Positions 8,275-64,000 of a stretch of DNA of 64,000 nucleotides are shown here, piece by piece. Source of the stretch: Gammaproteobacteria bacterium (GTDB lineage Bacteria; Pseudomonadota; Gammaproteobacteria; Magnimaribacterales; AG-339-G14). Position numbers and translations under genes: made by a program. How positions within the stretch are numbered: the stretch's first letter is position 1; every line of letters begins with the position of its first letter. A model generated the notes under the pieces. The model was not told the origin of the DNA. It did no database searches and saw only the letters and a program-made list of their open reading frames with translations. The DNA is taken from assembly GCA_019652555.1 (NCBI GenBank), contig BPAJ01000002.1, positions 79,014-143,013 on the forward strand, given 5' to 3'.

Positions 8275-9203
<929 letters not shown>

Positions 9204-9224
9204 CTAAAAAATTAGGAGACTAAT

Positions 9225-9452
9225 ATGGAAGTAGAAGTAGGTAGATTAATAGCAGGAGCACTGCTTACCGGTCTTGGCGCTTTAGGTGCCGGGATAGGTA
9301 TCGGAAGTCTAACTTCAAAATATATTGAAGCTGTGGCCAGACAGCCCGAGCTTCAAGGACAATTGTTCGCGCAGGTTTTGATTGCTCTTGGGCTTACAGA
9401 TGCATTGCCAATTATTTCTTTGGCTGTAGGGCTACTATTCTTGTTCACTTAA
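9225..9452 (+). CDS. atpE: F0F1 ATP synthase subunit c
   Basis: 75 aa hairpin proteolipid with ARQPE in the loop and a carboxylate in GLTDALPI. AGGAG SD upstream. Confidence 0.95.
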   Translation: MEVEVGRLIAGALLTGLGALGAGIGIGSLTSKYIEAVARQPELQGQLFAQVLIALGLTDALPIISLAVGLLFLFT

Positions 9453-9456
9453 AAAC

Positions 9457-9927
9457 ATGAATATAAACGCTACTTTTTTTGCAGAGCTTTTAGCTTTTTG
9501 TATCTTTGTGTTCATTACTTATAGATACATTTGGCCTAGTATGGAAAACCTTCTCGAGGACAGAAGAAAAGAAATTTCTGATGGTCTCGAGGCCGCCAGT
9601 CAATCTCAAAGAAAACTTGAAGAAGCAAATAAGGAGTCAGCAACGATATTAGATGAAGCGAAGGCGGAAGCCTCTTCCCTGATAAATCAAGCAAACTCCA
9701 GAGCAGATCAAATTGTCGATGAGGCGAAAGAACAAGCCGTGGAAGAAGCAAAGAAAATCAAACTCTCAGCAGAAGCAGATATCGAGCAAAGCGCTAACAA
9801 GGCTAAAGATGGCTTAAGGGATGAAGTCGCTGCGCTTGTTATTGCCGGTGCCCAGAAGATTTTAGACAAAGAGATAAACGCCAAGGCAAATAAAGACATC
9901 ATCGATTCGTTGATTAAAAAGATTTAA
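9457..9927 (+). CDS. atpF: F0F1 ATP synthase subunit b
   Basis: 156 aa with one N-terminal TM helix followed by a long charged Ala/Glu/Lys helix. Operon position. Confidence 0.92.
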   Translation: MNINATFFAELLAFCIFVFITYRYIWPSMENLLEDRRKEISDGLEAASQSQRKLEEANKESATILDEAKAEASSLINQANSRADQIVDEAKEQAVEEAKKIKLSAEADIEQSANKAKDGLRDEVAALVIAGAQKILDKEINAKANKDIIDSLIKKI

Positions 9928-10463
9928 TGTCAGAAATAAGAACACAATCTAGACCTTATGCTGAAGCAGCTTTTGAAGTTGCTCTAGCAGATGACGCTTT
10001 AGATGCGTGGACAGCAGATTTTTCGTTGATAGAACTTGCTCTTGAAGATCAAAAAATATCTCAACTCGTAGAGACGCCAAGTATCTCACAAAGTGAAAAA
10101 ACAAATATTTTCTGTGATTTGTTCAAAGATGAGGTTCAAGAAAAATTTGTAAATTTTCTTTCCGTTGCGGGAAGCGCAAATAGATTGAGGCTTTTGACTG
10201 ACATCAGCAAAAACTTCAAGGAACTCGTTGCCAAGGAAAAAAATTTAAAGAACATTACCGTTGCTTCTTCTTACAGAATTGACAAAGAACAACTAAAGCA
10301 AATTGAAGCAGCTTTAAAGAAAAGAATGAAAGCCGAAGTAAGCATTGTTACAGAAATAGACAAAAGTCTTATTGGCGGCCTAAAAATTTCTTATGACGAT
10401 CAAGTAATTGATTTGTCGATAAAAAACAAACTAGAAAAGTTGAAAACTCAACTTAGAACATAA
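9927..10463 (+). CDS. atpH: F0F1 ATP synthase subunit delta
   Basis: 178 aa. TAATG overlap with atp[13 protein letters not shown]-terminus and a C-terminal LIGGLKI motif typical of delta/OSCP. Confidence 0.92.
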
Positions 10464-54123: not shown

Positions 54124-54685
54124 ATGAATGAAGCACTAAATAATATTCTCAATAGAAACTCTCCCAGAGAATTGTCTGAACCTTATCCTTCTGAAAAAGA
54201 AATGGAGCTAATTTATCAGGCTGCTCTTAGAGCACCCGATCATGCTTGGCAAAGACCCTCAAGATTTATTCAAGTAACGGGCAAGGGCCTAGAAAAACTT
54301 TCATCTATTTTTGTAGATTTTGCTAAGGACAACATTGAGGATGTTACCGATGAGACATTGCAAAAATATAGAGAGGCACCTTTTCGCGCACCAATGATTG
54401 TCATTCTAATTTCTGAAATCAAGACGCATCCAAAAGTTCCTGAAATAGAGCAAATGCTCTCTACTGCGGCCGCTGCGGAAAATATATTACTTGCGTTAAA
54501 TGCTCTAAATTATGCTGGTATGTGGAGAACTGGAGTTTTTGCACTTAATGAAAAAAATTTTAAAATATTTAAAATTGAAAAATAACCAAAAAATTTGGGT
54601 TTTCTTTATGTAAATCCTACAGGAAAGCAAAAAAATTCCTGAAATGAATATTTCGGAATTCGTTACAGTGGATCTAACCTCTTGA
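54124..54685 (+). pseudogene. ydjA: YdjA-like NAD(P)H nitroreductase with in-frame stop and 3' frameshift
   Basis: ILNRNSPRELSEP...ALRAPDHAWQRPSRFI...APFRAPMIV parallels E. coli YdjA. An in-frame TAA at 54583-85 is followed in the same frame by PKNLGFLYVNPTGKQK. After an A7 run (about 54640) the C-terminus IPEMNISEFVTVDLTS* continues in another frame and ends at 54683-85. Confidence 0.75.
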
Positions 54686-55509
54686 TGGAAAAAGTTTTTA
54701 AAAAATCTATGGACAGGAGTTAGCTGCTTCAACATATGGATATAAAAAAAAAACCTCTTTTTTTTTCTTCATGGGGGGGACAAACTAGATTTGCAGGAAA
54801 AGGTAGCTAAAGTTTCAGCAAGGTTTCTATGTAATTACTTATGATTTAAAAGGGCATGGAGATAGCTTTTTGGGCTGAAAAAAAGGAAATTCAAGGGCGA
54901 AGATCATAAACAAGATTTAGCAGCATTGCTCAAGAGCGAATAAACCGCAAATTTAGTCGGCGCTTCTTTAGGGGGAATGACCTCCTTGTTTTTTGTTGGT
55001 GACGAAAAAATCTGGTTTTGTAAAACTTTGATCATGGTGGATATCGGCATTTATCCAAACCCAAAAAGGCTCAGAAAAATTCTAGACTTTATGAGTTCCG
55101 CTAAAAATGGTTTGAATCTTTAGAAGACTGCTAATCACATTTCAAAGTTTTTACCTCATAAAAAAACCCAAAGACTTGTCAGGGCTTAACAAAAATTTAA
55201 GAAGAAAGACGATAACCGGTTTTTTTGGCACTGGGATCCTAAATTTTAGAAGGAAGAGAAGGAAGAAATAGTAAGGAGTATTTTAAAACCCCTTGAACTG
55301 GCTGCTAGCAAAATAAAACAACCAACTCTATTAATTAGAGGGGCTTTGGTGATGTTTTGACAGACGAAGAAAAGGTTTTTTTTTGAAAAATAAAACATGC
55401 AGAATTTGAAGAGATTGAAAATGCCGCCCTATGGTGGCGGCGACAAAAAAGATATTTTCAGGCTGCTATTTTAAGTTTCTTAAAAAAAAATAATCAAATG
55501 TTGTTTTAA
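54685..55509 (+). pseudogene. Heavily decayed alpha/beta hydrolase
   Basis: Fragments spread over all three frames read PLFFFLHGGGQTRFAG, ITYDLKGHGDS, NLVGASLGGMTSL (nucleophile elbow G-x-S-x-G), KTLIMVDIG, FWHWDPKF, PTLLIRGA, and HAEFEEIENA...AILSFLKK. Many frameshifts and stops. No ORF of 60 aa or more. Confidence 0.8.
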
Positions 55510-55536
55510 TAATAATTTGCTTAGATATTTAGTCCT

Positions 55537-55713
55537 ATGGGGGAAAAAAATTTTTGGGGCTTTACTGCTTTTTTTAAGCAACTATTTTTAATTCTGACCC
55601 AGTTATTTGGAGTGGAATTGGGTACTTTTTTGACTCCCGGGAAAACATCCTCTACATATCCCAAAATTTTAAATTCTTTAGAAGGATTTGAATCTAGCAA
55701 GGCTAATTTCTGA
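55537..55713 (+). CDS. 58-aa hydrophobic ORF: either a small membrane protein or the displaced signal-peptide N-terminus of ORF-A
   Basis: ATG at 55537 gives MGEKNFWGFTAFFKQLFLILTQLFGVELGTF... This overlaps, in a different frame, the first 26 nt of the 55688 ORF, whose own frame only opens at 55682. Confidence 0.35.
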   Translation: MGEKNFWGFTAFFKQLFLILTQLFGVELGTFLTPGKTSSTYPKILNSLEGFESSKANF

Positions 55714-56830
55714 TAAGTTTTCTGGAAACGAAAATATTATTATTGGCGGCTCAGGGAACATATCGAGCGATGAAGGCCTTAACAGCGTACTTTTAGCAAT
55801 TACTTCGGAAAAAATATTCTCCAACTATAGAGGAAAAAATCCATTAGATGGCTCTCATTTGTGCTACAGAACTTATTTGCTTGGCTCTCAAGTTGTTTTG
55901 TACTCTTTAAATGACAAAAAAATCCTCAAAGCATTTCCAAGCACAACCAAAAAAACATTCATTGATGGAGATGACAAGGAAGCTTGTAAAAACTCAACTG
56001 TAAGCTTAAACCTCCATAAAGCAAGATTTGCTGATATTTTGTGGGGCTCTGATTTTGCAAAGATTGGAGTAGGCTCAGATTTTACCAGTAATTACAATTC
56101 TGCAAACTTAGAAACGAGCGGCATGCTTCAAGAACAAATGGAAAAGATCTTAACCCTGAAGAATATATTTGCTAAGGGAAATCAACCAATTGGCGTTAGG
56201 CAAGTAAGTGTTTCTGAATATGCAAATAATCAACTCACAGGAAAGGGAGATTTTTCTCCGCATCAAGATTATATTTCTAACAATGGATTAAATCTCAAAG
56301 AACTCAAAGAATGGTTGGGTGCTGAATTCTCAAAATGGCTAACTCAAGATTTAAAAATTTCTATTGTTCCTTTTTACGAAGGAGAGGGCTTAACTTTAAA
56401 TATAGGAACTACATTTTCTAACTCTGCTGAAGCTTTGAATCTAAAAAAACCTGAATTGAGTTATGGATTTGATTATGTATTAAGAGGTTTTAGAAAAGTT
56501 GATGTGGGAGAAACTCAGACACAAAAAGGAAGCGTTTGGTCTGTTTATTCTGGAATAAAATTTGGAGTTGTTTTAGGCGAAGAACCTGAAGATATAAAAA
56601 CTCTAGCAACCATTCCTTTTACTCAAAGTACAGCTGAACAATATAATAAAACGGATATAATAAATGACTGGGATAATTTTGATGAAACAACACAAGTGGG
56701 TATAAGAGAAATTAGTCAAAACTTAATCAAACAAAATAAAAATTGGATGAAAGAGAGTTCAGAAATATCATCAAAAGAATTTAGGAATTTTGCTAAAACT
56801 ATTTTAAGTAAGGTGGGATATGAAAAATAA
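55688..56830 (+). CDS. ORF-A, hypothetical protein, first gene of the exported-protein operon
   Basis: 380 aa with a TTG start as drawn by the track and no signal peptide in this frame. Ser/Asn/Gly-rich with no recognisable catalytic motif. 11-nt overlap with ORF-B. Confidence 0.55.
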   Translation: MNLARLISDKFSGNENIIIGGSGNISSDEGLNSVLLAITSEKIFSNYRGKNPLDGSHLCYRTYLLGSQVVLYSLNDKKILKAFPSTTKKTFIDGDDKEACKNSTVSLNLHKARFADILWGSDFAKIGVGSDFTSNYNSANLETSGMLQEQMEKILTLKNIFAKGNQPIGVRQVSVSEYANNQLTGKGDFSPHQDYISNNGLNLKELKEWLGAEFSKWLTQDLKISIVPFYEGEGLTLNIGTTFSNSAEALNLKKPELSYGFDYVLRGFRKVDVGETQTQKGSVWSVYSGIKFGVVLGEEPEDIKTLATIPFTQSTAEQYNKTDIINDWDNFDETTQVGIREISQNLIKQNKNWMKESSEISSKEFRNFAKTILSKVGYEK

Positions 56831-57920
56831 AATCAAAATAATCTTCGTTTCTTTGAGCATATTAGGCATAGGATTTTTTCCATCTTATGCTTCGACTGAG
56901 GTTGTTGTAAAAGGAACTGGTTTTAACTCTTTCTCGAAAGGATGTAGCAAAAACAAACCTCGCGATAAAGGATTGCATGAAGCTACAATGGAAAAGGCAA
57001 AAGAAAAGGCTTGGAAAAGATTTATCAATAAACAAGAAGATGATGTTATAGATGTTTATGATGAAAATGAGGATGAAATTCTAGAAAACTTAGATGACTT
57101 CATTTTGGATATGTCAGTTCTAAATCAAGAATGCGATAAATCAAGCAAAACATATGAATTGATAGTAAGGCTGTCAATAGACGACAGAGCTTTCAACAGG
57201 TTTTTAACGAAAGCGACTGGTAATACATCAAGACAGGGAGCTCTAGCAGGGCAAACAACTTTAATCTTGCTTTATCCAAGAGTAGTAGCTACAAGAATAG
57301 ATGCCAAGAGAGCCGACGTAACCGAAAAACGATCCAGTTTCGAAGGTGATGAAGTTAGCGATGTTGATAATAATTCGGCTTCTATTTCAGAAAGGTCTAT
57401 TGAAAAGAATGCAATCATTAAAGGTGGAAGTACCACAGCCTCTAGAAATATATACAAGATAGGTAATCAACAAGATGCTCAGGCTTCAGCTACGAGAGCA
57501 TTGAGAAGATTCAAAATGAGAGCCACTTTTCCTGCAAATATGGTGGCAAGGTCGGAAAGAATGGGAGTGGATGCGAGCTTTTTAAATACTTTGAGAGACG
57601 AGTTTATACAGGAAGGAAATTATTCATTTAATACTTTAGCAAATCTCGAAAATTTTTCTATGGATATTGGAGCCTATCAATTTATTGTTTTAGGTTCTAT
57701 AGATCTTAGCGAAGCTAGAGTAGATCAACAATCAGGGTTACCGAGAGTTACAGCTATAGTAAATATTGAACTATATGAAGCTACAATGGATGGAAATTTT
57801 GTTCTTGCAACTGCTAATGAATCTTATAACGCAGTTGCAGAAACTCAAGAGGAGGCACAATCAGCAGCACTAAAAAAAGCTGCAAAGACTGCGATAGAAG
57901 GTTTATTTACGCAAATTTAA
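56820..57920 (+). CDS. ORF-B, exported hypothetical protein with LPP20/FlgP-like terminal motifs
   Basis: 366 aa with signal peptide MKNKIKIIFVSLSILGIGFFPSYA-ST. N-terminal VVVKGTG...HEATMEKAKEKAWKRFI and C-terminal ETQEEAQSAALKKAAKTAIEGL resemble the LPP20-type G-x-G...A-x3-A-x3-A pattern. Confidence 0.6.
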   Translation: MKNKIKIIFVSLSILGIGFFPSYASTEVVVKGTGFNSFSKGCSKNKPRDKGLHEATMEKAKEKAWKRFINKQEDDVIDVYDENEDEILENLDDFILDMSVLNQECDKSSKTYELIVRLSIDDRAFNRFLTKATGNTSRQGALAGQTTLILLYPRVVATRIDAKRADVTEKRSSFEGDEVSDVDNNSASISERSIEKNAIIKGGSTTASRNIYKIGNQQDAQASATRALRRFKMRATFPANMVARSERMGVDASFLNTLRDEFIQEGNYSFNTLANLENFSMDIGAYQFIVLGSIDLSEARVDQQSGLPRVTAIVNIELYEATMDGNFVLATANESYNAVAETQEEAQSAALKKAAKTAIEGLFTQI

Positions 57921-57964
57921 ATTTTGCTTTATAAAACAAAAAAAAATTTTTTAGGAGAGAAAAA

Positions 57965-58660
57965 ATGAAAAATATTTATAAAACAATACTTTTTACATTA
58001 GGTATTTTATTGTCATCATTAAGCTTTGCACAATTTGGTGGATTGGGAGGCTTAAAGGATGCTATTGGAGGAGGAGATTCCTCTGGAGGAGGAAACGCAT
58101 TAGCTTTACAGGCTGAACTGATTTTAGGAATGAGTGTCGCAATGAACTCTTTCTTGAAAGCAGACGCTAAGTTTATGAGTGCAATTGGCCAAGATGCAGA
58201 AGCGAAAAAGCTTCTAAATCTTGTGGAAGAGCCTTCTGAGAATGACAAAAAACTTGAAGCAAAGATCAAGGCAAGTGGTGAGGCAGATATAAAAATGCAA
58301 TCCTTCATTGATTCCGGAAAGGAATTAAGTGCGGAAGGAAAAAAAGATTTAGCTGAAGGACTTTTGCCTTATGCAATAGGAATGGCCTCAATGATTAAAA
58401 TGGCAAAAGTAGCGCCTGAATTTTTGCAAGCCTCAGTAGACGAGATTAAAAGCATTAAAAATCCTATGCAAATTATGAAAGTGAAAAAACAATTTGACTT
58501 AGGAGTAAAAACAGGAAAAAAGGTTCCTGATCTATTCAAAAAACTTGGAGCTTCTTCAAAAAAACTTTTTGGTTTTGCTAAAGCGAACAAGATAGATATG
58601 AAAAAAGTTCAGAGTGATGCAAAAAAAGCAGGAGCAGCAGACGGTATACCTAGTATGTAA
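57965..58660 (+). CDS. ORF-C, exported Gly-rich then Lys-rich helical hypothetical protein
   Basis: 231 aa with an AGGAGA SD and signal peptide MKNIYKTILFTLGILLSSLSFA-Q. A FGGLGGLKDAIGGGDSSGGGN linker is followed by a predicted all-helical Lys/Ala-rich body. Confidence 0.6.
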   Translation: MKNIYKTILFTLGILLSSLSFAQFGGLGGLKDAIGGGDSSGGGNALALQAELILGMSVAMNSFLKADAKFMSAIGQDAEAKKLLNLVEEPSENDKKLEAKIKASGEADIKMQSFIDSGKELSAEGKKDLAEGLLPYAIGMASMIKMAKVAPEFLQASVDEIKSIKNPMQIMKVKKQFDLGVKTGKKVPDLFKKLGASSKKLFGFAKANKIDMKKVQSDAKKAGAADGIPSM

Positions 58661-58666
58661 CTAAAA

Positions 58667-59938
58667 ATGTTTTTAAGAAAATTTCTATTCTTTGTCACGC
58701 TTTCTACATTTGTAACTTTTGGCTTTAGCCAAATAGAAACTGTATCAGTAAATTCCAAAGGCTATGGAGACGGACCAGAGTCTGCATTAAATTCTGCTTT
58801 GACTCAGGCCATTGGACAAGTGAATGGAAGATCCATAGATTCTGATAGTTTACTTACGACAACAGAAAAAACCTCCACTAAAAATGATGAGTCAGATTAC
58901 CTTTCCAGTAGAGATTTCAAAGAATCAATCAAATCTAAAACTAAAGGAGTAGTAGAAAGTTATTCGATACTATCTAATGCAAAAGATGATTCTGGTTTAT
59001 GGGTTGCTGAAATTACAGCACAAATTGCTAGGTTCAAAACTTCGAAATCTGCAAATCGAAAAAGAATAGCCGTAATTGATTTGATAGGTAGACAAGGATG
59101 TTGCCTAACAGTGGAGGGCGAACTTAATCCAGATGTTGCAGCTTATGAAGTTTCAAGTGCTATTTCTAATTTTCTTGTTCAAAGTAGAAAATTCACTGTT
59201 TTAGATAGATCATTCCAAGGATTTGCAGAAACTGAGAGAAATACTCTTAAAACTTCTGAAAATATGCCTGTTAAAGAGTTAGCTAAATTAGGTCAGGAAC
59301 TATTTGCAGACATGATTCTTGTTGGGAATTTAAATTCCATCCGTCTTCAAAAGGCACAAAGAAAAATGAATACTTCTGATCGAGTTTTAGAATATTTAAC
59401 TGGAAATATTGCGACAAACATCAGGATAATTGACACTGCTACAGGTCAAATTAAATTTTCTTCTTCTCTGAGAATGAATCCAAAAGATTTAGATCTAAAT
59501 CTTGGAAGTGACATTTTCACTATTTCAAAAAAAGTTGGCGAGCGAGTTGGATTTACAGTTCTCAATGCGATTTATCCTATTCAGGTTACCGGTGTCACCG
59601 AGAAAATTGTTGTTGACCTTAATACAGGAGGAGATGTTGTTTCTGTAGGTCAAGTTTTTGACCTGATGTTGTTGGGAGAAAAAATAAAAGATGCTTATAC
59701 AAAGGAATCTCTTGGAAAAAGAGAGACAAAGATAGGTACAGTTGAAATTACCCAAGTCTCTCCGAAACAATCTAGAGGGAAAGCTACCTTGATAAACGAA
59801 ACTTCAAATCTTGAAACAAACTTTAAACCGAAGATGTATATTTTAAGATTGAGCAATTCAAGTAAAAAACAAGCTTTGAAGAAAAAGACTAAGGAAGTAA
59901 GAAAACAAATAGAAAAAGATTTTGAGGATTTATATTAA
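58667..59938 (+). CDS. ORF-D, exported three-module protein: LPP20-like N-domain, CsgG/FlgO-like core, C-terminal beta domain
   Basis: 423 aa with signal peptide MFLRKFLFFVTLSTFVTFGFS-Q. N-terminal VNSKGYGDGPESALNSALTQAIGQVNG. Core KRIAVIDLIGR...ISNFLVQSRKFTVLDRS...LAKLGQELFADMILVGNL matches the CsgG-family pattern. C-terminal GGDVVSVGQVFDL...IGTVEITQVSPKQSRGKA. Confidence 0.6.
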   Translation: MFLRKFLFFVTLSTFVTFGFSQIETVSVNSKGYGDGPESALNSALTQAIGQVNGRSIDSDSLLTTTEKTSTKNDESDYLSSRDFKESIKSKTKGVVESYSILSNAKDDSGLWVAEITAQIARFKTSKSANRKRIAVIDLIGRQGCCLTVEGELNPDVAAYEVSSAISNFLVQSRKFTVLDRSFQGFAETERNTLKTSENMPVKELAKLGQELFADMILVGNLNSIRLQKAQRKMNTSDRVLEYLTGNIATNIRIIDTATGQIKFSSSLRMNPKDLDLNLGSDIFTISKKVGERVGFTVLNAIYPIQVTGVTEKIVVDLNTGGDVVSVGQVFDLMLLGEKIKDAYTKESLGKRETKIGTVEITQVSPKQSRGKATLINETSNLETNFKPKMYILRLSNSSKKQALKKKTKEVRKQIEKDFEDLY

Positions 59939-59956
59939 ATTTAAAAGAGAAAAACT

Positions 59957-61297
59957 ATGAGTAAATTAAACCGATTAATTAAAGTATCTTTAGCAACAGC
60001 TTTTTTTGTGTCTCCTTTGTTGGCACAAGAAATAGATAATCAAGAAGAAAGTGATTTCGTGATTGAAATCTTATCTCTACCTTCAGAAATGTGTGATGAC
60101 TATCTCAGTAATAAAGGGTGGACTACTGGATTAAATACCTTGAAAGGAGGAAAGGAGGTTTATTTTGCAGTTGGGTTCTCAGGCATTAAGGCTCCTAAAA
60201 ATAGTCTTAGGTATGTAGATTCAATTCAAAATGCCTACACATCAGCTGCCTTGCAAGCAAAAAAAGAACTTGCAGAGTACTGGGGAAAAGAAGTTACTAA
60301 TGATTTGAAGACATCTCTGGTCGAGAGACTTTCTGAGGGTAAAAAACCTCAGGATTTACTTGCAGAAGAAAAATCTAAAAATGAAGATGGGGAACTTTCC
60401 CTCCTTGAAAAAGCAAGATTGATAATGCATCAAAAACTCAACGACATGATGAGCGATGAAACTCAAGAAAAAATTGAAAATGACCAATTGGAGGCTGAAG
60501 AACTTGCAAGAGCAATCGATAACATTACTGATCAGAATAGTTTTCAACAAACGGTGAATACTTCAGCTCAAGCACAAATAAGAGGTATGAAAACTACCTA
60601 TGCGGGACTTTCCGAAACGGGAGTTTGTGCGGTATCAGCCTGGTCCGAGAACACTTCGAAACAAGCAGACGCTCTTGCGACAGGAGACTTTAAAATTCTG
60701 CAAAATTTGAAGCCTGGAAAGCCCTTTTCACAAAGAATTCCTAATCATAAATCAGCAAAAGGAGTTGAAAAATTGTTATCTCGCTTCGGAGCTTATATAG
60801 CCAGAAATGAAAATGGTGAAATTGGCGTCATAAGTTATGGTCAAGCTTCTGCAATGAGATCTGACCCTACCGCCATGAAAAGTGCTATGAATGTCGCAAA
60901 ACTGAAAGCAGAAGCTCAAATTGCTCAATTGAGCAAAGAGAATGTTGATGTTAGAAGCAAATTAGAAGATATAGAAATTGAAACTGGATTCAAAAATAGC
61001 GATATGAAGGACTACTACTCAGAAAGAAATACCGAAGAGAGAATTGCAGCTAGCTCCAAGCTCAAAGTTTCTGGAGTTGTCCAATATGGTTCTTGGGCGA
61101 TACCTGCACACCCAATAACCAAAAAGCCAGTTGCTGGAGTCATTTTAACTTGGACTCCTTCAGATTCAAATTTAGCTAAAAAAATGAAAAAAACAGATTC
61201 TACCTCTTCTTCTAGTAAGCCTTCAGGTGGTTCTTGGTCTGAGGAAACAGGAATGACAGGAGGAGGCTCTTCTGGAGATGACGAAGAAGATTTTTAG
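59957..61297 (+). CDS. ORF-E, exported protein with two LPP20-like modules, a central coiled-coil and an acidic Ser/Gly tail
   Basis: 446 aa with signal peptide ...LATAFFVSPLLA-QE. The modules are VYFAVGFSG...IQNAYTSAALQAKKELAEY and IGVISYGQAS...MKSAMNVAKLKAEAQIAQL. The tail reads TDSTSSSSKPSGGSWSEETGMTGGGSSGDDEEDF. Confidence 0.6.
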   Translation: MSKLNRLIKVSLATAFFVSPLLAQEIDNQEESDFVIEILSLPSEMCDDYLSNKGWTTGLNTLKGGKEVYFAVGFSGIKAPKNSLRYVDSIQNAYTSAALQAKKELAEYWGKEVTNDLKTSLVERLSEGKKPQDLLAEEKSKNEDGELSLLEKARLIMHQKLNDMMSDETQEKIENDQLEAEELARAIDNITDQNSFQQTVNTSAQAQIRGMKTTYAGLSETGVCAVSAWSENTSKQADALATGDFKILQNLKPGKPFSQRIPNHKSAKGVEKLLSRFGAYIARNENGEIGVISYGQASAMRSDPTAMKSAMNVAKLKAEAQIAQLSKENVDVRSKLEDIEIETGFKNSDMKDYYSERNTEERIAASSKLKVSGVVQYGSWAIPAHPITKKPVAGVILTWTPSDSNLAKKMKKTDSTSSSSKPSGGSWSEETGMTGGGSSGDDEEDF

Positions 61298-61631
61298 TAT
61301 ATTTCTTATTGTTTCCTCCTCATTTATCTTGGCTTCAGAATATAGTTTTGATTTCAAGATTGATAAAAAGTTTGAATTTCCTGATTCTCAAGCAAGAGCA
61401 GAGGCAAATAAGATAATTGTAGAAAATGCTTATTTAGCATTTCATCAACAATCCACTTTGAATAAAAGTTGCTGGGAAAATTATTTAAAAAATAAAAAGA
61501 TAAAATTCGAAATTAAGGAGAGTAAAGTTGAGACAATCAACTTTTTTGAAAGACTTTATAGAGTAAAGTTTGATCCAAATAAAATAAGTTTTGAATATGA
61601 TCATTCAAACTACATTGACTCAGGATGTTAA
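61278..61631 (+). CDS. ORF-F, small exported hypothetical protein
   Basis: 117 aa with signal peptide MTKKIFSIFLIVSSSFILA-SE. Overlaps the ORF-E 3' end by 20 nt. Ends ...DSGC. Confidence 0.55.
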   Translation: MTKKIFSIFLIVSSSFILASEYSFDFKIDKKFEFPDSQARAEANKIIVENAYLAFHQQSTLNKSCWENYLKNKKIKFEIKESKVETINFFERLYRVKFDPNKISFEYDHSNYIDSGC

Positions 61632-61650
61632 TTTAAAAGGAGAAAGTTTA

Positions 61651-62334
61651 ATGTTGTGGCTAAAAACCTTTTTTGGGATTCTTTTTCAAACATTACTATT
61701 AGGCCTTTTTTTGTATTTACCCGCCTTTACTTTGAGTTGGTTCGAGGCATTTTTATTTCTTTGTATTCACTTTTCAATGACTATCTTGGCTTCTGGATAC
61801 TTGCTTGTTTACAAACCCGATAGCATACAAGCGCGACTAAATTACGATTCTGAAGCTCAACCCCAAGAGGATAAATTCGCAACATCTCTTATGTTTAGTG
61901 CAATTATCTTTGGGCTTTGTTTAGCTCCTATTGATATTTTCCACTTAAATTTTTCACCTGCTTTTGAAGGTTTAACCAAAAATATTGGATTAGGTATCTA
62001 CACTCTTGGAATGATACTGTTCATGGCTTCTATAAATGCAAACGAATTTGCAGAAACCACAGTAAATATTCAAGAAGAGAGAGGTCAGAAGGTTATAGAC
62101 ACAGGAGTTTACTCTCTGGTGCGACATCCGATGTATACAGGCTTTATTTTTTTTATAACTGGAGTAAATCTTTGGCTAGGAACATATCTTTCTCTTTTGT
62201 TGAGTTTAACTTTTCTTGCTATTGCTTTGAGATCAAGAATTAATATTGAAGAAAAAACTCTCCTCAATGATTTAGAGGGCTATGACGATTACTGTAAGAA
62301 AGTAAAAGCTAGGCTAATTCCTTTTTTGTTTTAA
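61651..62334 (+). CDS. Isoprenylcysteine carboxyl / phospholipid methyltransferase-like membrane protein
   Basis: ATG at 61651 with AAGGAG 8 nt upstream (the track start 61591 overlaps ORF-F). Polytopic, with GVYSLVRHPMYTGFIFF typical of ICMT/PEMT-type methyltransferases. Confidence 0.7.
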   Translation: MLWLKTFFGILFQTLLLGLFLYLPAFTLSWFEAFLFLCIHFSMTILASGYLLVYKPDSIQARLNYDSEAQPQEDKFATSLMFSAIIFGLCLAPIDIFHLNFSPAFEGLTKNIGLGIYTLGMILFMASINANEFAETTVNIQEERGQKVIDTGVYSLVRHPMYTGFIFFITGVNLWLGTYLSLLLSLTFLAIALRSRINIEEKTLLNDLEGYDDYCKKVKARLIPFLF

Positions 62335-62343
62335 AATTTCGTA

Positions 62344-63186
62344 GTGTATGAGTTATCGAATGTTTCAATAGTTATTGTAAGCTTTAACAGCGAAGAAAAA
62401 CTATTTGAATTATTTCCATCCATTCCTGAGAATTGCGAATTAATAATTGTAAATAACGCATCAAATTCTTTGCCACAAGAATTAAAAAAATCGAGACATT
62501 TTATTGAAATTCATAACTCTGAAAACAAAGGATTTGGAACGGCATGTAACATTGGTGTTACTAAAGCATCTAAAGATTTTATATTTCTCCTTAACCCCGA
62601 TACTTTTCTAAAAGATCATTGTTTAGAAAATCTATTAAAAGTTTGCAAAGATTTTCCTAATGCTTCTGCTTTTACTCCAAAAATAACTAATAAAAAAAAT
62701 AAAGAAGACTTCAAACGTCGCTCAATTCTTTTAGATAGGGGACAGTGGTTAAAAGGTCCTCCAAAGGTTTTGAGTGAAATTCCTGTGATGGGAGGTGCAG
62801 CTATTTTTTTAAAAAAAACAATTTTCTCTAAGGTAGGTGGCTTTGATGAAAATATATTTTTGTATCATGAAGATGATGATCTTTCTCTAAGGCTTAAAAA
62901 TGAAGTGGGCTCATTGATGTATTGCCCTCAGGCTAAGATTTTTCACGATGGCGGAAGCTCATCTTCAAGAAGTCCTTCAATAGCGAAGCTGAAAGGTTTT
63001 CATATGGGCAAATCAAGAGTATATGCAATGAAAAAATATCAGATTAAGAACTATAAATTGAAATGCATTTTCTTTGCTATCATTCAATTAATGTCAGTTG
63101 AAATGTTATTTTCCAAAAGAAAAAGAGCTAAATATCTTTCTTTTTATGAAGGAGTGATGGAAGGAATAAGAGAGGATTTAGAATGA
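62344..63186 (+). CDS. Family 2 glycosyltransferase
   Basis: 280 aa with a GTG start. VSIVIVSFNSEE, NKGFGTACNIG, LLNPDT, and GGAAIFLKK..F..VGGFDENIFLYHEDDDLSLR are typical of GT2 rhamnosyltransferase-like enzymes. Confidence 0.85.
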   Translation: MYELSNVSIVIVSFNSEEKLFELFPSIPENCELIIVNNASNSLPQELKKSRHFIEIHNSENKGFGTACNIGVTKASKDFIFLLNPDTFLKDHCLENLLKVCKDFPNASAFTPKITNKKNKEDFKRRSILLDRGQWLKGPPKVLSEIPVMGGAAIFLKKTIFSKVGGFDENIFLYHEDDDLSLRLKNEVGSLMYCPQAKIFHDGGSSSSRSPSIAKLKGFHMGKSRVYAMKKYQIKNYKLKCIFFAIIQLMSVEMLFSKRKRAKYLSFYEGVMEGIREDLE

Positions 63187-64000
63187 TTTTAGTTACTGGG
63201 GGAAGTGGTTTTATTGGAGCTAATTTCATAGTCAATTCGTTACATAAGAAAAAAGAGCCTATTATAAATCTAGATAAGCTTACGTATGCAGCAAATCAAA
63301 AAAATTTGAAAGAAGTTGAGACGCTGGAAAATTACTTTTTTGAAAAAGGCTCAATTGATGATTATTCACTGCTATCTGCTTTGTTAAAAAAATACCAACC
63401 AAGGTTGATTATCAATTTTGCAGCAGAAAGTCATGTTGATCGTTCTATTTCAAGTTCCGATGAGTTTATAAATACAAACATAATAGGTACTCATACTCTT
63501 TTAAAGGCTTGTTTAGTTTATTTTGAAAGCTTGAAGGGTGAAGAAAAAGACGCATTTAGATTTATTCAAATTTCAACGGATGAAGTTTACGGCTCTTTAA
63601 AAGATTCTGATCCACAGTCTATAGAAGAAAGCCCATACTTTCCTAATAGTCCTTATTCAGCTTCTAAAGCTTCAGGAGATCATTTAGTAAGAGCTTGGCA
63701 TGAGACGTTTGGGCTTCCAACAATTACGACTAATTGCACAAACAATTACGGCCCCTATCAGCACCCAGAAAAACTAATTCCCAAGATTATCAATCACTGT
63801 TTAAACGATGAAAAATTACCAATTTATGGCGACGGAAAAAATATTAGAGATTGGCTCTATGTATTAGATCACTGTGAAGCAATATCGATGGTTGCTGAAA
63901 AGGGCAAAATAGGAGAAACGTATAACATAAGGGGAAAAAATGAAATTGAGAACATTAGTGTTGTACAAAATATATGTACCTTATTAGACGAACTCAAGCC
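63183..64000 (+). CDS. rfbB: dTDP-glucose 4,6-dehydratase (partial, runs off the right edge)
   Basis: ATGA overlap with the GT2 stop. MILVTGGSGFIGANFI, ESHVDRSI, the catalytic YSASKASGDHLVRAW, and NCTNNYGPYQHPEKLIP. Not in the track because no stop is reached. Confidence 0.92.
   Translation, partial: MILVTGGSGFIGANFIVNSLHKKKEPIINLDKLTYAANQKNLKEVETLENYFFEKGSIDDYSLLSALLKKYQPRLIINFAAESHVDRSISSSDEFINTNIIGTHTLLKACLVYFESLKGEEKDAFRFIQISTDEVYGSLKDSDPQSIEESPYFPNSPYSASKASGDHLVRAWHETFGLPTITTNCTNNYGPYQHPEKLIPKIINHCLNDEKLPIYGDGKNIRDWLYVLDHCEAISMVAEKGKIGETYNIRGKNEIENISVVQNICTLLDELK

Follow-up and report, generated by a model that had tools for sequence, protein, structure and literature searches.

A SAR86 operon of exported proteins centred on a FlgT-like and a DUF6844 protein suggests a non-flagellar envelope scaffold

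Six consecutive, co-directional open reading frames (ORFs), A to F, span positions 55537-61631 on the plus strand of a 64,000-nucleotide (nt) stretch of contig BPAJ01000002.1 (hereafter the window, in whose coordinates all positions are given), which a scan of species-representative genomes placed in SAR86. Our analysis indicates that ORF-D encodes a FlgT-like periplasmic protein rather than a CsgG pore, and that ORF-E encodes a member of the DUF6844 family, to which the crystallized Francisella protein FTT_1539c belongs. By analogy with the H-ring of the Vibrio flagellar motor, we tentatively read the product of A-F as a non-flagellar, H-ring-like scaffold that would lie in the periplasm near the outer membrane and would not be a secretion pore, a reading to which we give somewhat less than an even chance. 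Neither the operon in SAR86 and SAR11 nor its Francisella counterpart has a function, name or description; what was known are the folds and one crystal structure. All sources label the A-F proteins hypothetical, and the literature on FlgT homologues in non-flagellated bacteria and on Pelagibacter with CsgG does not describe the operon. Thus, the view of a first-pass annotation of the window, that this gene combination is not a described system, holds, as none of the proteins is named in any source.

The AlphaFold2 (AF2) model of D (predicted local distance difference test, pLDDT, 67.5, with the domains mostly at 70-88) consists of an N-terminal beta-alpha-(disordered insert)-beta-beta region, an alpha/beta middle domain, a beta-rich C-domain and a terminal charged helix (Table 1). 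When this model was compared with the PDB using Foldseek, the top match was FlgT (3W1E; E=2e-17 over 414 columns), followed by FlgT in the Vibrio LPHT ring (8Z5N; E=1e-16). Ranked lower were single-domain relatives, namely CsgG (1e-6), TolB, CT253, GNA1162, LpoB (4Q6Z, 1e-4), PelC (1e-4) and HpaA. At the level of sequence profiles, the window protein matches Pfam CsgG (PF03783) over residues 129-297 with 29.4 bits against a cut-off of 20.8, and Pfam LpoB (PF13036) with 28 bits against a cut-off of 22.3, the latter match being partial (profile positions 49-121 of 147). Among the 15 members of the D family, CsgG and LpoB are each matched by all 15 and FlgT_M by 11. Because the same stretch of D also matches LpoB and FlgT_M, its CsgG match marks the superfamily and not the channel. 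The window's own D gave no FlgT_N, FlgT_M or FlgT_C match in Pfam at E<=1, such matches being found in relatives alone; the Sedimenticolaceae homologue, for example, matches FlgT_N at 4.5e-4 and FlgT_C at 4.5e-3.

Other features of D point the same way. An hhalign comparison of the D family with Escherichia coli CsgG gave a probability of 2.7% with 78 columns aligned, and the score against the LpoB equivalog TIGR02722 was 22.7 bits, below its cut-off of 110.55. Signal-peptide cleavage is predicted between GFS and Q, and a lipobox occurs in 0 of 26 D-family members. In the AF2 model the tip of the long hairpin formed by residues 216-256 is strongly charged (QKAQRKMNTSDR). Since FlgT is the top structural match, the CsgG profile comparison is insignificant, the hairpin tip is charged and there is no lipid anchor, we conclude that D is FlgT-like and periplasmic, and not a CsgG pore. 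The CsgG-like core that the first-pass annotation saw in D is therefore present in so far as Pfam CsgG is exceeded throughout the family, but the protein is best read as FlgT-like. The M-domain also carries a vicinal cysteine pair, Cys145-Cys146 (59099-59104), which is invariant in 15 of 15 aligned SAR86 D proteins and missing in the homologues from Alphaproteobacteria, Sedimenticolaceae and Francisella; it might form a disulfide between subunits or a metal site.

ORF-E could be assigned by homology over its full length. A profile of 21 orthologues matches the Francisella FTT_1539c structure (PDB 4QVR) with E=2.3e-30 at profile positions 1-441, and nine of these 21 match Pfam DUF6844 (PF20891), with a best value of 3.4e-12; the window's own E lies below Pfam detection. 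The AF2 model of E (pLDDT 66.7), made from a shallow alignment given that a homologue search with the window's E returned nine matches, contains two repeats of a beta-hairpin, a ~40-residue helix and a second beta-hairpin, separated by a helical insert, and its C-terminus is a disordered Ser/Gly linker that ends in an invariant Asp-Phe. Foldseek matched this model to 4QVR with E=1.3e-10, and to Helicobacter pylori Lpp20 (5OK8) with E ~3, a probability of 0.2 and a TM score of ~0.45 on target length.

D and E are themselves probably linked by a domain. An iterated hidden Markov model (HMM) search pulled D into the E family with inflated E-values, which were treated as an artefact, and the relation was hence retested with an E-only HMM. 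This returned 9e-5 and 2.5e-4 for the N-domains of two D sequences; hhalign of the two families agreed weakly (E=0.004). The N-domain of D thus seems distantly related to the C-terminal repeat of E. The first-pass annotation had described an LPP20/FlgP-type motif in B, D and E. The sequence strings it named exist, but Pfam LPP20 (PF02169) was reached by a single D member of the 15 (E=0.97), by none of the 21 E members and by none in sets of 19 and 89 B members. HMMs thus lend LPP20 membership no support in any of the three proteins, and in D and E the motif is probably one FlgT_N-like domain, weakly and distantly shared.

The loci compared comprise SAR86-type loci (L001-L018, some truncated by contig ends), alphaproteobacterial loci (L019-L027), one from Sedimenticolaceae (L028) and one from Francisella (L029). 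D has 638 database relatives, nearly all from marine metagenomes and with one near-identical form on 60 contigs; further homologues occur in Pelagibacteraceae, in other uncultured alphaproteobacterial single-cell genomes and, distantly, in a metagenome-assembled genome (MAG) of Sedimenticolaceae. The gene order A-B-C-D-E-(F) is kept in every SAR86 locus where the contig allows, with identities falling to 40% in D and to ~25% in A. Alphaproteobacterial loci carry A-E, and most add a small F-like Cys-Trp protein after E; in some of them A-B is inverted and divergent from C-D-E. The first-pass annotation had proposed neighbourhood conservation as a check, and the unit is indeed kept in all SAR86 loci and in the alphaproteobacterial single-cell genomes. 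SAR86-type A-F operons were also seen on MAG contigs binned as Candidatus Neomarinimicrobiota (L007) and Flavobacteriales (L011), with D 87% and 45% identical, respectively, and the gene order unchanged; these contigs are probably mis-binned.

The Francisella locus contains, in order, FTT_1540c (LpoB), FTT_1539c (E-like), FTT_1538c (D-like) and FTT_1537c (a 464-residue lipoprotein). The E HMM matches FTT1539c at 1.5e-32, and the D HMM matches FTT1538c at 7e-38 over the M- and C-domains (hhalign 99.6%). FTT_1540c is a bona fide LpoB-family lipoprotein (TIGR02722, 228 bits). The Sedimenticolaceae locus likewise encodes an LpoB, an E-like protein, a full-length D-like protein and a lipoprotein homologous to that of Francisella, such that in both lineages the E-D pair stands directly after a bona fide lpoB (Pfam LpoB 5.6e-35). 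What is conserved at the core is therefore the D+E pair, whereas the accessory proteins vary by lineage. The two lipoproteins, FTT_1537c (11431-12825 in L029) and the 470-residue protein of L028 (4106-5518), are homologous by BLASTP at 1e-13 and belong to no family.

An E-like DUF6844 protein (hhalign 100%) was also found at 9001-10374 of loci L030/L031 in a different neighbourhood, where no D homologue was detected; E is therefore not confined to the D+E pairing. Near this protein lie sigma factors, a Ser/Thr kinase, a 342-residue lipoprotein and a 490-residue protein in which a D N-domain signal is faintly visible. FTT1537c, the 470-residue L028 lipoprotein and the L030-locus neighbours are not detectably related to A, B, C or F. 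Previous work treated FTT1537c-1540c as a four-gene operon of unknown function, found FTT_1538c to be ~100-fold enriched in outer-membrane vesicles (PMC6795709), and identified FTT_1539c as a recurrent immunodominant and outer-membrane vesicle antigen (PMC10963506, PMC4207810); its orthologue FTL_0572 is annotated only as a DUF6844 protein (PMC13649117).

The SAR11 and Francisella lineages are non-motile or non-flagellated. The gene calls of loci L001-L005 and L029-L031 include no flagellar family, and no Pfam curli component of the csgE/csgF/csgA/csgB type was found in A, B, C, E, F or their families. The absence of curli and flagellar partner genes, which the first-pass annotation had noted for the window, is thus borne out for the operon, and a SAR86 isolate has been described as non-motile (PMC11582366).

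The ORF coordinates confirm the tight, co-directional packing claimed earlier: A and B overlap by 11 nt (56820-56830) and E and F by 20 nt (61278-61297), with gaps of 44 nt between B and C, 6 nt between C and D and 18 nt between D and E. Operon G+C is ~34%, similar to the flanks, and a scan for promoters and terminators was uninformative, with signals at or below shuffle expectation. Comparison of A-F with the L007 and L008 orthologues gave nonsynonymous differences (pN) of 0.08-0.22 and synonymous differences (pS) of 0.58-0.76, the latter saturated. Because pN is far below the saturated pS, A-F are real genes under strong purifying selection.

All six products are predicted to be Sec-exported. 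The N-termini of B-F combine a charged or basic start, a hydrophobic core (12-residue Kyte-Doolittle mean of 2.0-2.5) and a cleavage site of the A/S-x-A (small-x-small) type, and the orthologues of A have an N-terminal signal peptide; the Sec signals that the first-pass annotation assigned to B-F are in this way upheld. So is its statement that none has a lipobox Cys: lipobox-like motifs were found in 0 of 16-26 members of the A, B, D, E and F families, the sole exception being one of 26 members of the C family. All six lack internal transmembrane-like segments. A, B, E and F contain exactly two cysteines each, D the vicinal pair and C none, a pattern that fits folding in an oxidising periplasm. 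C, D and E have acidic C-terminal tails (58630-58657, 59921-59935 and 61270-61294, respectively). The last residue is aromatic in D (FEDLY) and in E (EEDF, the F being invariant); relatives of C end in a hydrophobic residue (DDIEL, SSMEL), and the window's own C ends in GIPSM. These tails may be a shared docking motif.

Taken together, the analysis suggests the following mechanism. The six exported proteins, being neither lipoproteins nor membrane-spanning, would work in the periplasm or on the inner side of the outer membrane. D would oligomerise close to the outer membrane to give a ring or a lattice, by analogy with FlgT and with the CsgG/PelC/TolB-N superfamily; CsgG and PelC, which share the middle-domain fold, also form rings. 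In the Vibrio H-ring, FlgT is a 26-mer periplasmic ring, and the lipoproteins FlgP and FlgO form concentric rings whose C-terminal loops reach into the adjacent ring (bioRxiv 10.64898/2025.12.02.691832). E and the accessory proteins A, B, C and F would dock onto D, possibly via the acidic, aromatic- or hydrophobic-ended tails of C, D and E, which may be compared with these FlgP and FlgO loops. The resulting scaffold would support envelope architecture by coordinating the outer membrane with the peptidoglycan. Of the ring, channel or scaffold proposed in the first-pass annotation, the envelope ring or scaffold hence survives on the FlgT/CsgG-superfamily folds, and the secretion channel fails, given the missing lipid anchor and the charged hairpin.

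Several observations weigh against such a scaffold. The most telling is that no lipid anchor, OmpA or LysM peptidoglycan-binding domain or beta-barrel signature was found in any of the six proteins, which leaves its attachment to the outer membrane or peptidoglycan unexplained and is its weak point. No oligomer has been predicted or observed; no fold could be assigned to A, B, C or F; and both AF2 models, those of D and E, are of medium confidence (pLDDT ~67). Vibrio FlgT, moreover, needs the flagellar LP-ring as a template, which is absent here. Finally, a transposon mutant of FTT1538c grew normally and was only marginally attenuated (PMC4696196), and the module is therefore not essential in Francisella.

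Chief among the alternatives is a regulator of peptidoglycan synthesis, whereby D and E would work with LpoB-type activators of class A penicillin-binding proteins, or in SAR86 and SAR11 replace them, the D M-domain contacting the synthase from the outer-membrane side. The M-domain, above the Pfam LpoB threshold in every family member and similar to LpoB 4Q6Z in the Foldseek comparison, fits this proposal, as does the position of the E-D pair behind a bona fide lpoB in Francisella and Sedimenticolaceae. However, D reaches only about a fifth of the ~110-bit LpoB equivalog cut-off, the structure of D is much closer to FlgT than to LpoB, and D has neither the lipid anchor nor the long disordered linker by which LpoB spans the periplasm. 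The module is also present in Alphaproteobacteria, which are not known to have the LpoB/UB2H system, and on these grounds we consider a role in peptidoglycan regulation rather unlikely. Improbable, in our estimate, is a ring around an outer-membrane secretin, in which D would encircle the secretin of a type IV pilus or type II secretion system as TsaP encircles PilQ. Rings of FlgT-fold proteins around other outer-membrane machines are known, and the D profile aligns weakly, in its FlgT_C-like domain, to the FlgT-like repeats of TsaP (6VE2_O), but with E=0.3 the alignment is not significant, D contains no LysM domain, and in the loci with listed genes the operon has no pil or gsp gene next to it.

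CsgG-like (type VIII) secretion or surface anchoring would have a D pore export C or another product of the operon, or form a PelC/HfaB-like funnel for a neighbouring glycan. C is indeed a low-complexity exported protein, a glycosyltransferase gene and an RfbB-like dehydratase gene lie just downstream in the window, and the Pfam CsgG matches and Foldseek similarities of D to CsgG and PelC also speak for it. The model of D, however, has a charged tip (QKAQRKMNTSDR) where an amphipathic membrane hairpin would be expected, and the missing lipobox, the poor hhalign result with E. coli CsgG, the lack of CsgE/F/A/B-like partners and the failure of the glycan neighbourhood to recur in other loci make this reading very improbable. 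A decaying flagellar H-ring, left over as flgT, flgO and flgP after the loss of motility, would account for the FlgT fold of D, but it is effectively refuted: in lineages 60% apart in sequence all six genes remain intact, with pN far below pS, the unit is common to two classes of non-motile bacteria, and the partners of D are not FlgO or FlgP, matching neither LPP20 nor FlgO HMMs.

The remaining proteins of the operon are family-less. When A, B, C, E and F were scanned directly against Pfam and NCBIfam, no significant match and hence no enzyme family emerged, in keeping with the earlier remark that none shows an enzyme motif, and hhalign among the six families gave nothing beyond the B-D and D-E pairs. 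A has no Pfam match, either for the window protein or family-wide, and no PDB sequence match beyond chance. Its orthologues, of 414-450 residues with two conserved Cys, precede B wherever that end of the locus is complete; in L019 and L027 the A-B pair is inverted onto the opposite strand. In B, a low-complexity TGGS linker joins an N-terminal beta-alpha-beta-beta domain to a C-terminal alpha/beta domain that carries the weak LptE-like signal given below, and the B family is diverse (154 representative clusters at 50% identity with E<=1e-3). Neither shallow nor 89-sequence deep alignments of B gave a PDB sequence match beyond chance, and its Pfam signals are faint (LptE in nine of 89 members, best 6e-4; FlgT_N in two of 89). 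An hhalign comparison of B with D, in the D N-domain, gave a probability of 31% with the signal peptide included and 15% with the deep B alignment; at these values B is not claimed as a relative of FlgT_N or LPP20.

C, which sits between B and D in all loci, has a Gly-rich N-terminus and an acidic tail, is of low complexity and, judged by composition, is probably helical; family-wide Pfam searches found no family and PDB profile searches chance matches only. In one alphaproteobacterial group (L020, L021 and L023-L025; for example, L020 6292-7935) C has 545-548 residues, with an N-terminal extension of ~320 residues, and one of these long proteins matches a BamE domain at 7e-4. F has a conserved Cys-Trp motif as well as a C-terminal Cys. 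It follows E in most SAR86 loci, and a positional equivalent with the same Cys pattern does so in most alphaproteobacterial loci.

The start of ORF-A lies in a damaged patch. The ATG at 55537 given for ORF-A in the first-pass annotation corresponds to the start codon of the 430-residue orthologues, but the frame is broken: compared with L006, L007 and L008, the first ~50 codons contain four indels (+4, -5, +1, +1) and do not share a reading frame with the ORF, which is open only from 55688. The patch (~54560-55700, ~1.1 kb) contains ~68 gap positions relative to syntenic SAR86 loci, mostly homopolymer-length changes. It also truncates the 3' end of a nitroreductase-like ORF (153 versus 186 residues) and destroys an alpha/beta-hydrolase gene, both genes being intact in L006 (the hydrolase with 286 residues). 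To judge from these changes, the patch looks like low-quality sequence rather than gene decay or pseudogenisation.

Table 1. Positions of the operon genes, the segments of ORF-D and the adjoining gene in the window
Feature	Position	Strand	Description
ORF-A	55537..56830	+	predicted exported protein, ~430 residues in relatives, family-less; open frame from 55688 (TTG), first ~50 codons frameshifted
ORF-B	56820..57920	+	predicted exported protein, 366 residues
ORF-C	57965..58660	+	predicted exported protein, 231 residues, family-less
ORF-D	58667..59938	+	putative FlgT-like three-domain periplasmic protein, 423 residues, without lipobox
D N-domain	58730..59038	+	residues 22-124; FlgT_N-like beta-alpha-(disordered insert)-beta-beta, from AF2 secondary structure
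D M-domain	59054..59572	+	residues 130-302; alpha/beta, CsgG/LpoB/TolB-N/FlgT_M superfamily; carries Cys145-Cys146
D C-domain	59579..59851	+	residues 305-395; FlgT_C-like beta domain, covered by the FlgT Foldseek alignment
D C-terminal Lys/Glu helix	59864..59935	+	acidic-aromatic tail FEDLY; DENW or DDDW in relatives
ORF-E	59957..61297	+	predicted exported DUF6844/FTT_1539c-family protein, 446 residues
ORF-F	61278..61631	+	small predicted exported protein, 117 residues
ORF-G	61591..62334	+	ICMT/PEMT-family membrane methyltransferase; neighbour, outside the conserved unit

Downstream of F (61591-64000) lie the ICMT/PEMT methyltransferase gene (ORF-G; Pfam PEMT 2.5e-11, ICMT 2.2e-10), a gene for a family 2 glycosyltransferase (GT2) and the start of a gene for an RfbB-like dTDP-glucose 4,6-dehydratase, a set that marks where a surface-glycan locus begins to border the operon. 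When the positions of the methyltransferase and GT2 genes were compared, these two were found after F in the closest relatives (L006-L008) only. In L001, L004 and other loci the flanks vary by lineage (MarC, cupin, DUF2805, GIY-YIG and others). Because the methyltransferase/GT2 flank is limited to the closest relatives, the glycan locus is a neighbour of the operon and not a partner; of the link drawn in the first-pass annotation, the adjacency in the window stands but is not conserved.

SAR86 and SAR11 have streamlined genomes and rank among Earth's most abundant organisms, and an operon kept under strong purifying selection in such abundant hosts likely matters for envelope biology. Its non-flagellar context for the FlgT fold bears on the evolution of the Vibrio-type H-ring, and it supplies a functional neighbourhood for DUF6844/FTT_1539c, an immunodominant Francisella antigen associated with outer-membrane vesicles that has a crystal structure. 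Going beyond the H-ring-like scaffold proposed above, one might picture a free-standing periplasmic ring or lattice organelle made of H-ring parts (FlgT-like protein plus FlgT_N-like repeats) in non-flagellated bacteria, two of the ocean's most abundant clades among them, either an ancestral envelope module from which FlgT was recruited into gammaproteobacterial motors or an independent envelope-stabilising machine, with FTT1537c-1540c as its pathogen version; we regard this larger picture as doubtful. A-F form a concrete set of targets for cryo-electron tomography and genetics in cultured SAR86, Pelagibacter and F. novicida.

How the operon relates to known systems can be summarized as follows. 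The M-domain of D, with its Pfam matches to CsgG and LpoB and Foldseek values of 1e-6 to 1e-4, falls into the CsgG/LpoB/TolB-N/PelC/GNA1162 superfamily. The CsgG channel differs in that D lacks a lipid anchor, amphipathic membrane hairpins (as judged from sequence and model) and curli partners, and LpoB differs in that D scores far below its equivalog cut-off and has no lipobox. A link to the CsgGF genes of Pelagiphages and OM43 phages (PMC9004378) was dropped, as those are true CsgG-like pores and appear unrelated. In their beta-alpha-beta-beta topology, the D N-domain and the repeats of E are similar to small domains of the Lpp20/FlgP type (5OK8), but the Foldseek similarity is marginal, Pfam LPP20 is unmatched and the operon proteins are not lipoproteins. 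TsaP (6VE2) is a precedent for a non-flagellar FlgT-fold periplasmic ring, formed around the type IV pilus secretin, and differs from D in its LysM domain and pilus gene context.

The Francisella operon is alike in that E is homologous to FTT_1539c over its full length and D to FTT_1538c over the M- and C-domains, with the two genes adjacent; it differs in having E before D, an FTT_1538c without an N-domain, two lipoproteins as partners and no detected homologue of A, B, C or F. FlgT (3W1E, 8Z5N) and D are both Sec-exported non-lipoproteins with three domains, N, M and C, and FlgT is the best full-length Foldseek match, although identity is ~12-14%. FlgT belongs to a flagellated host with an LP-ring and the partners FlgO, FlgP and MotX/Y, whereas D is found in non-motile or non-flagellated hosts with other operon partners and has, in addition, the disordered N-domain insert, the C-terminal charged helix with its acidic-aromatic tail and the vicinal Cys pair. 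The operon thus does not pass the tests that define CsgG, flagellar FlgT or LPP20/FlgP, and is therefore classed as a non-flagellar system of FlgT-like and DUF6844 proteins.

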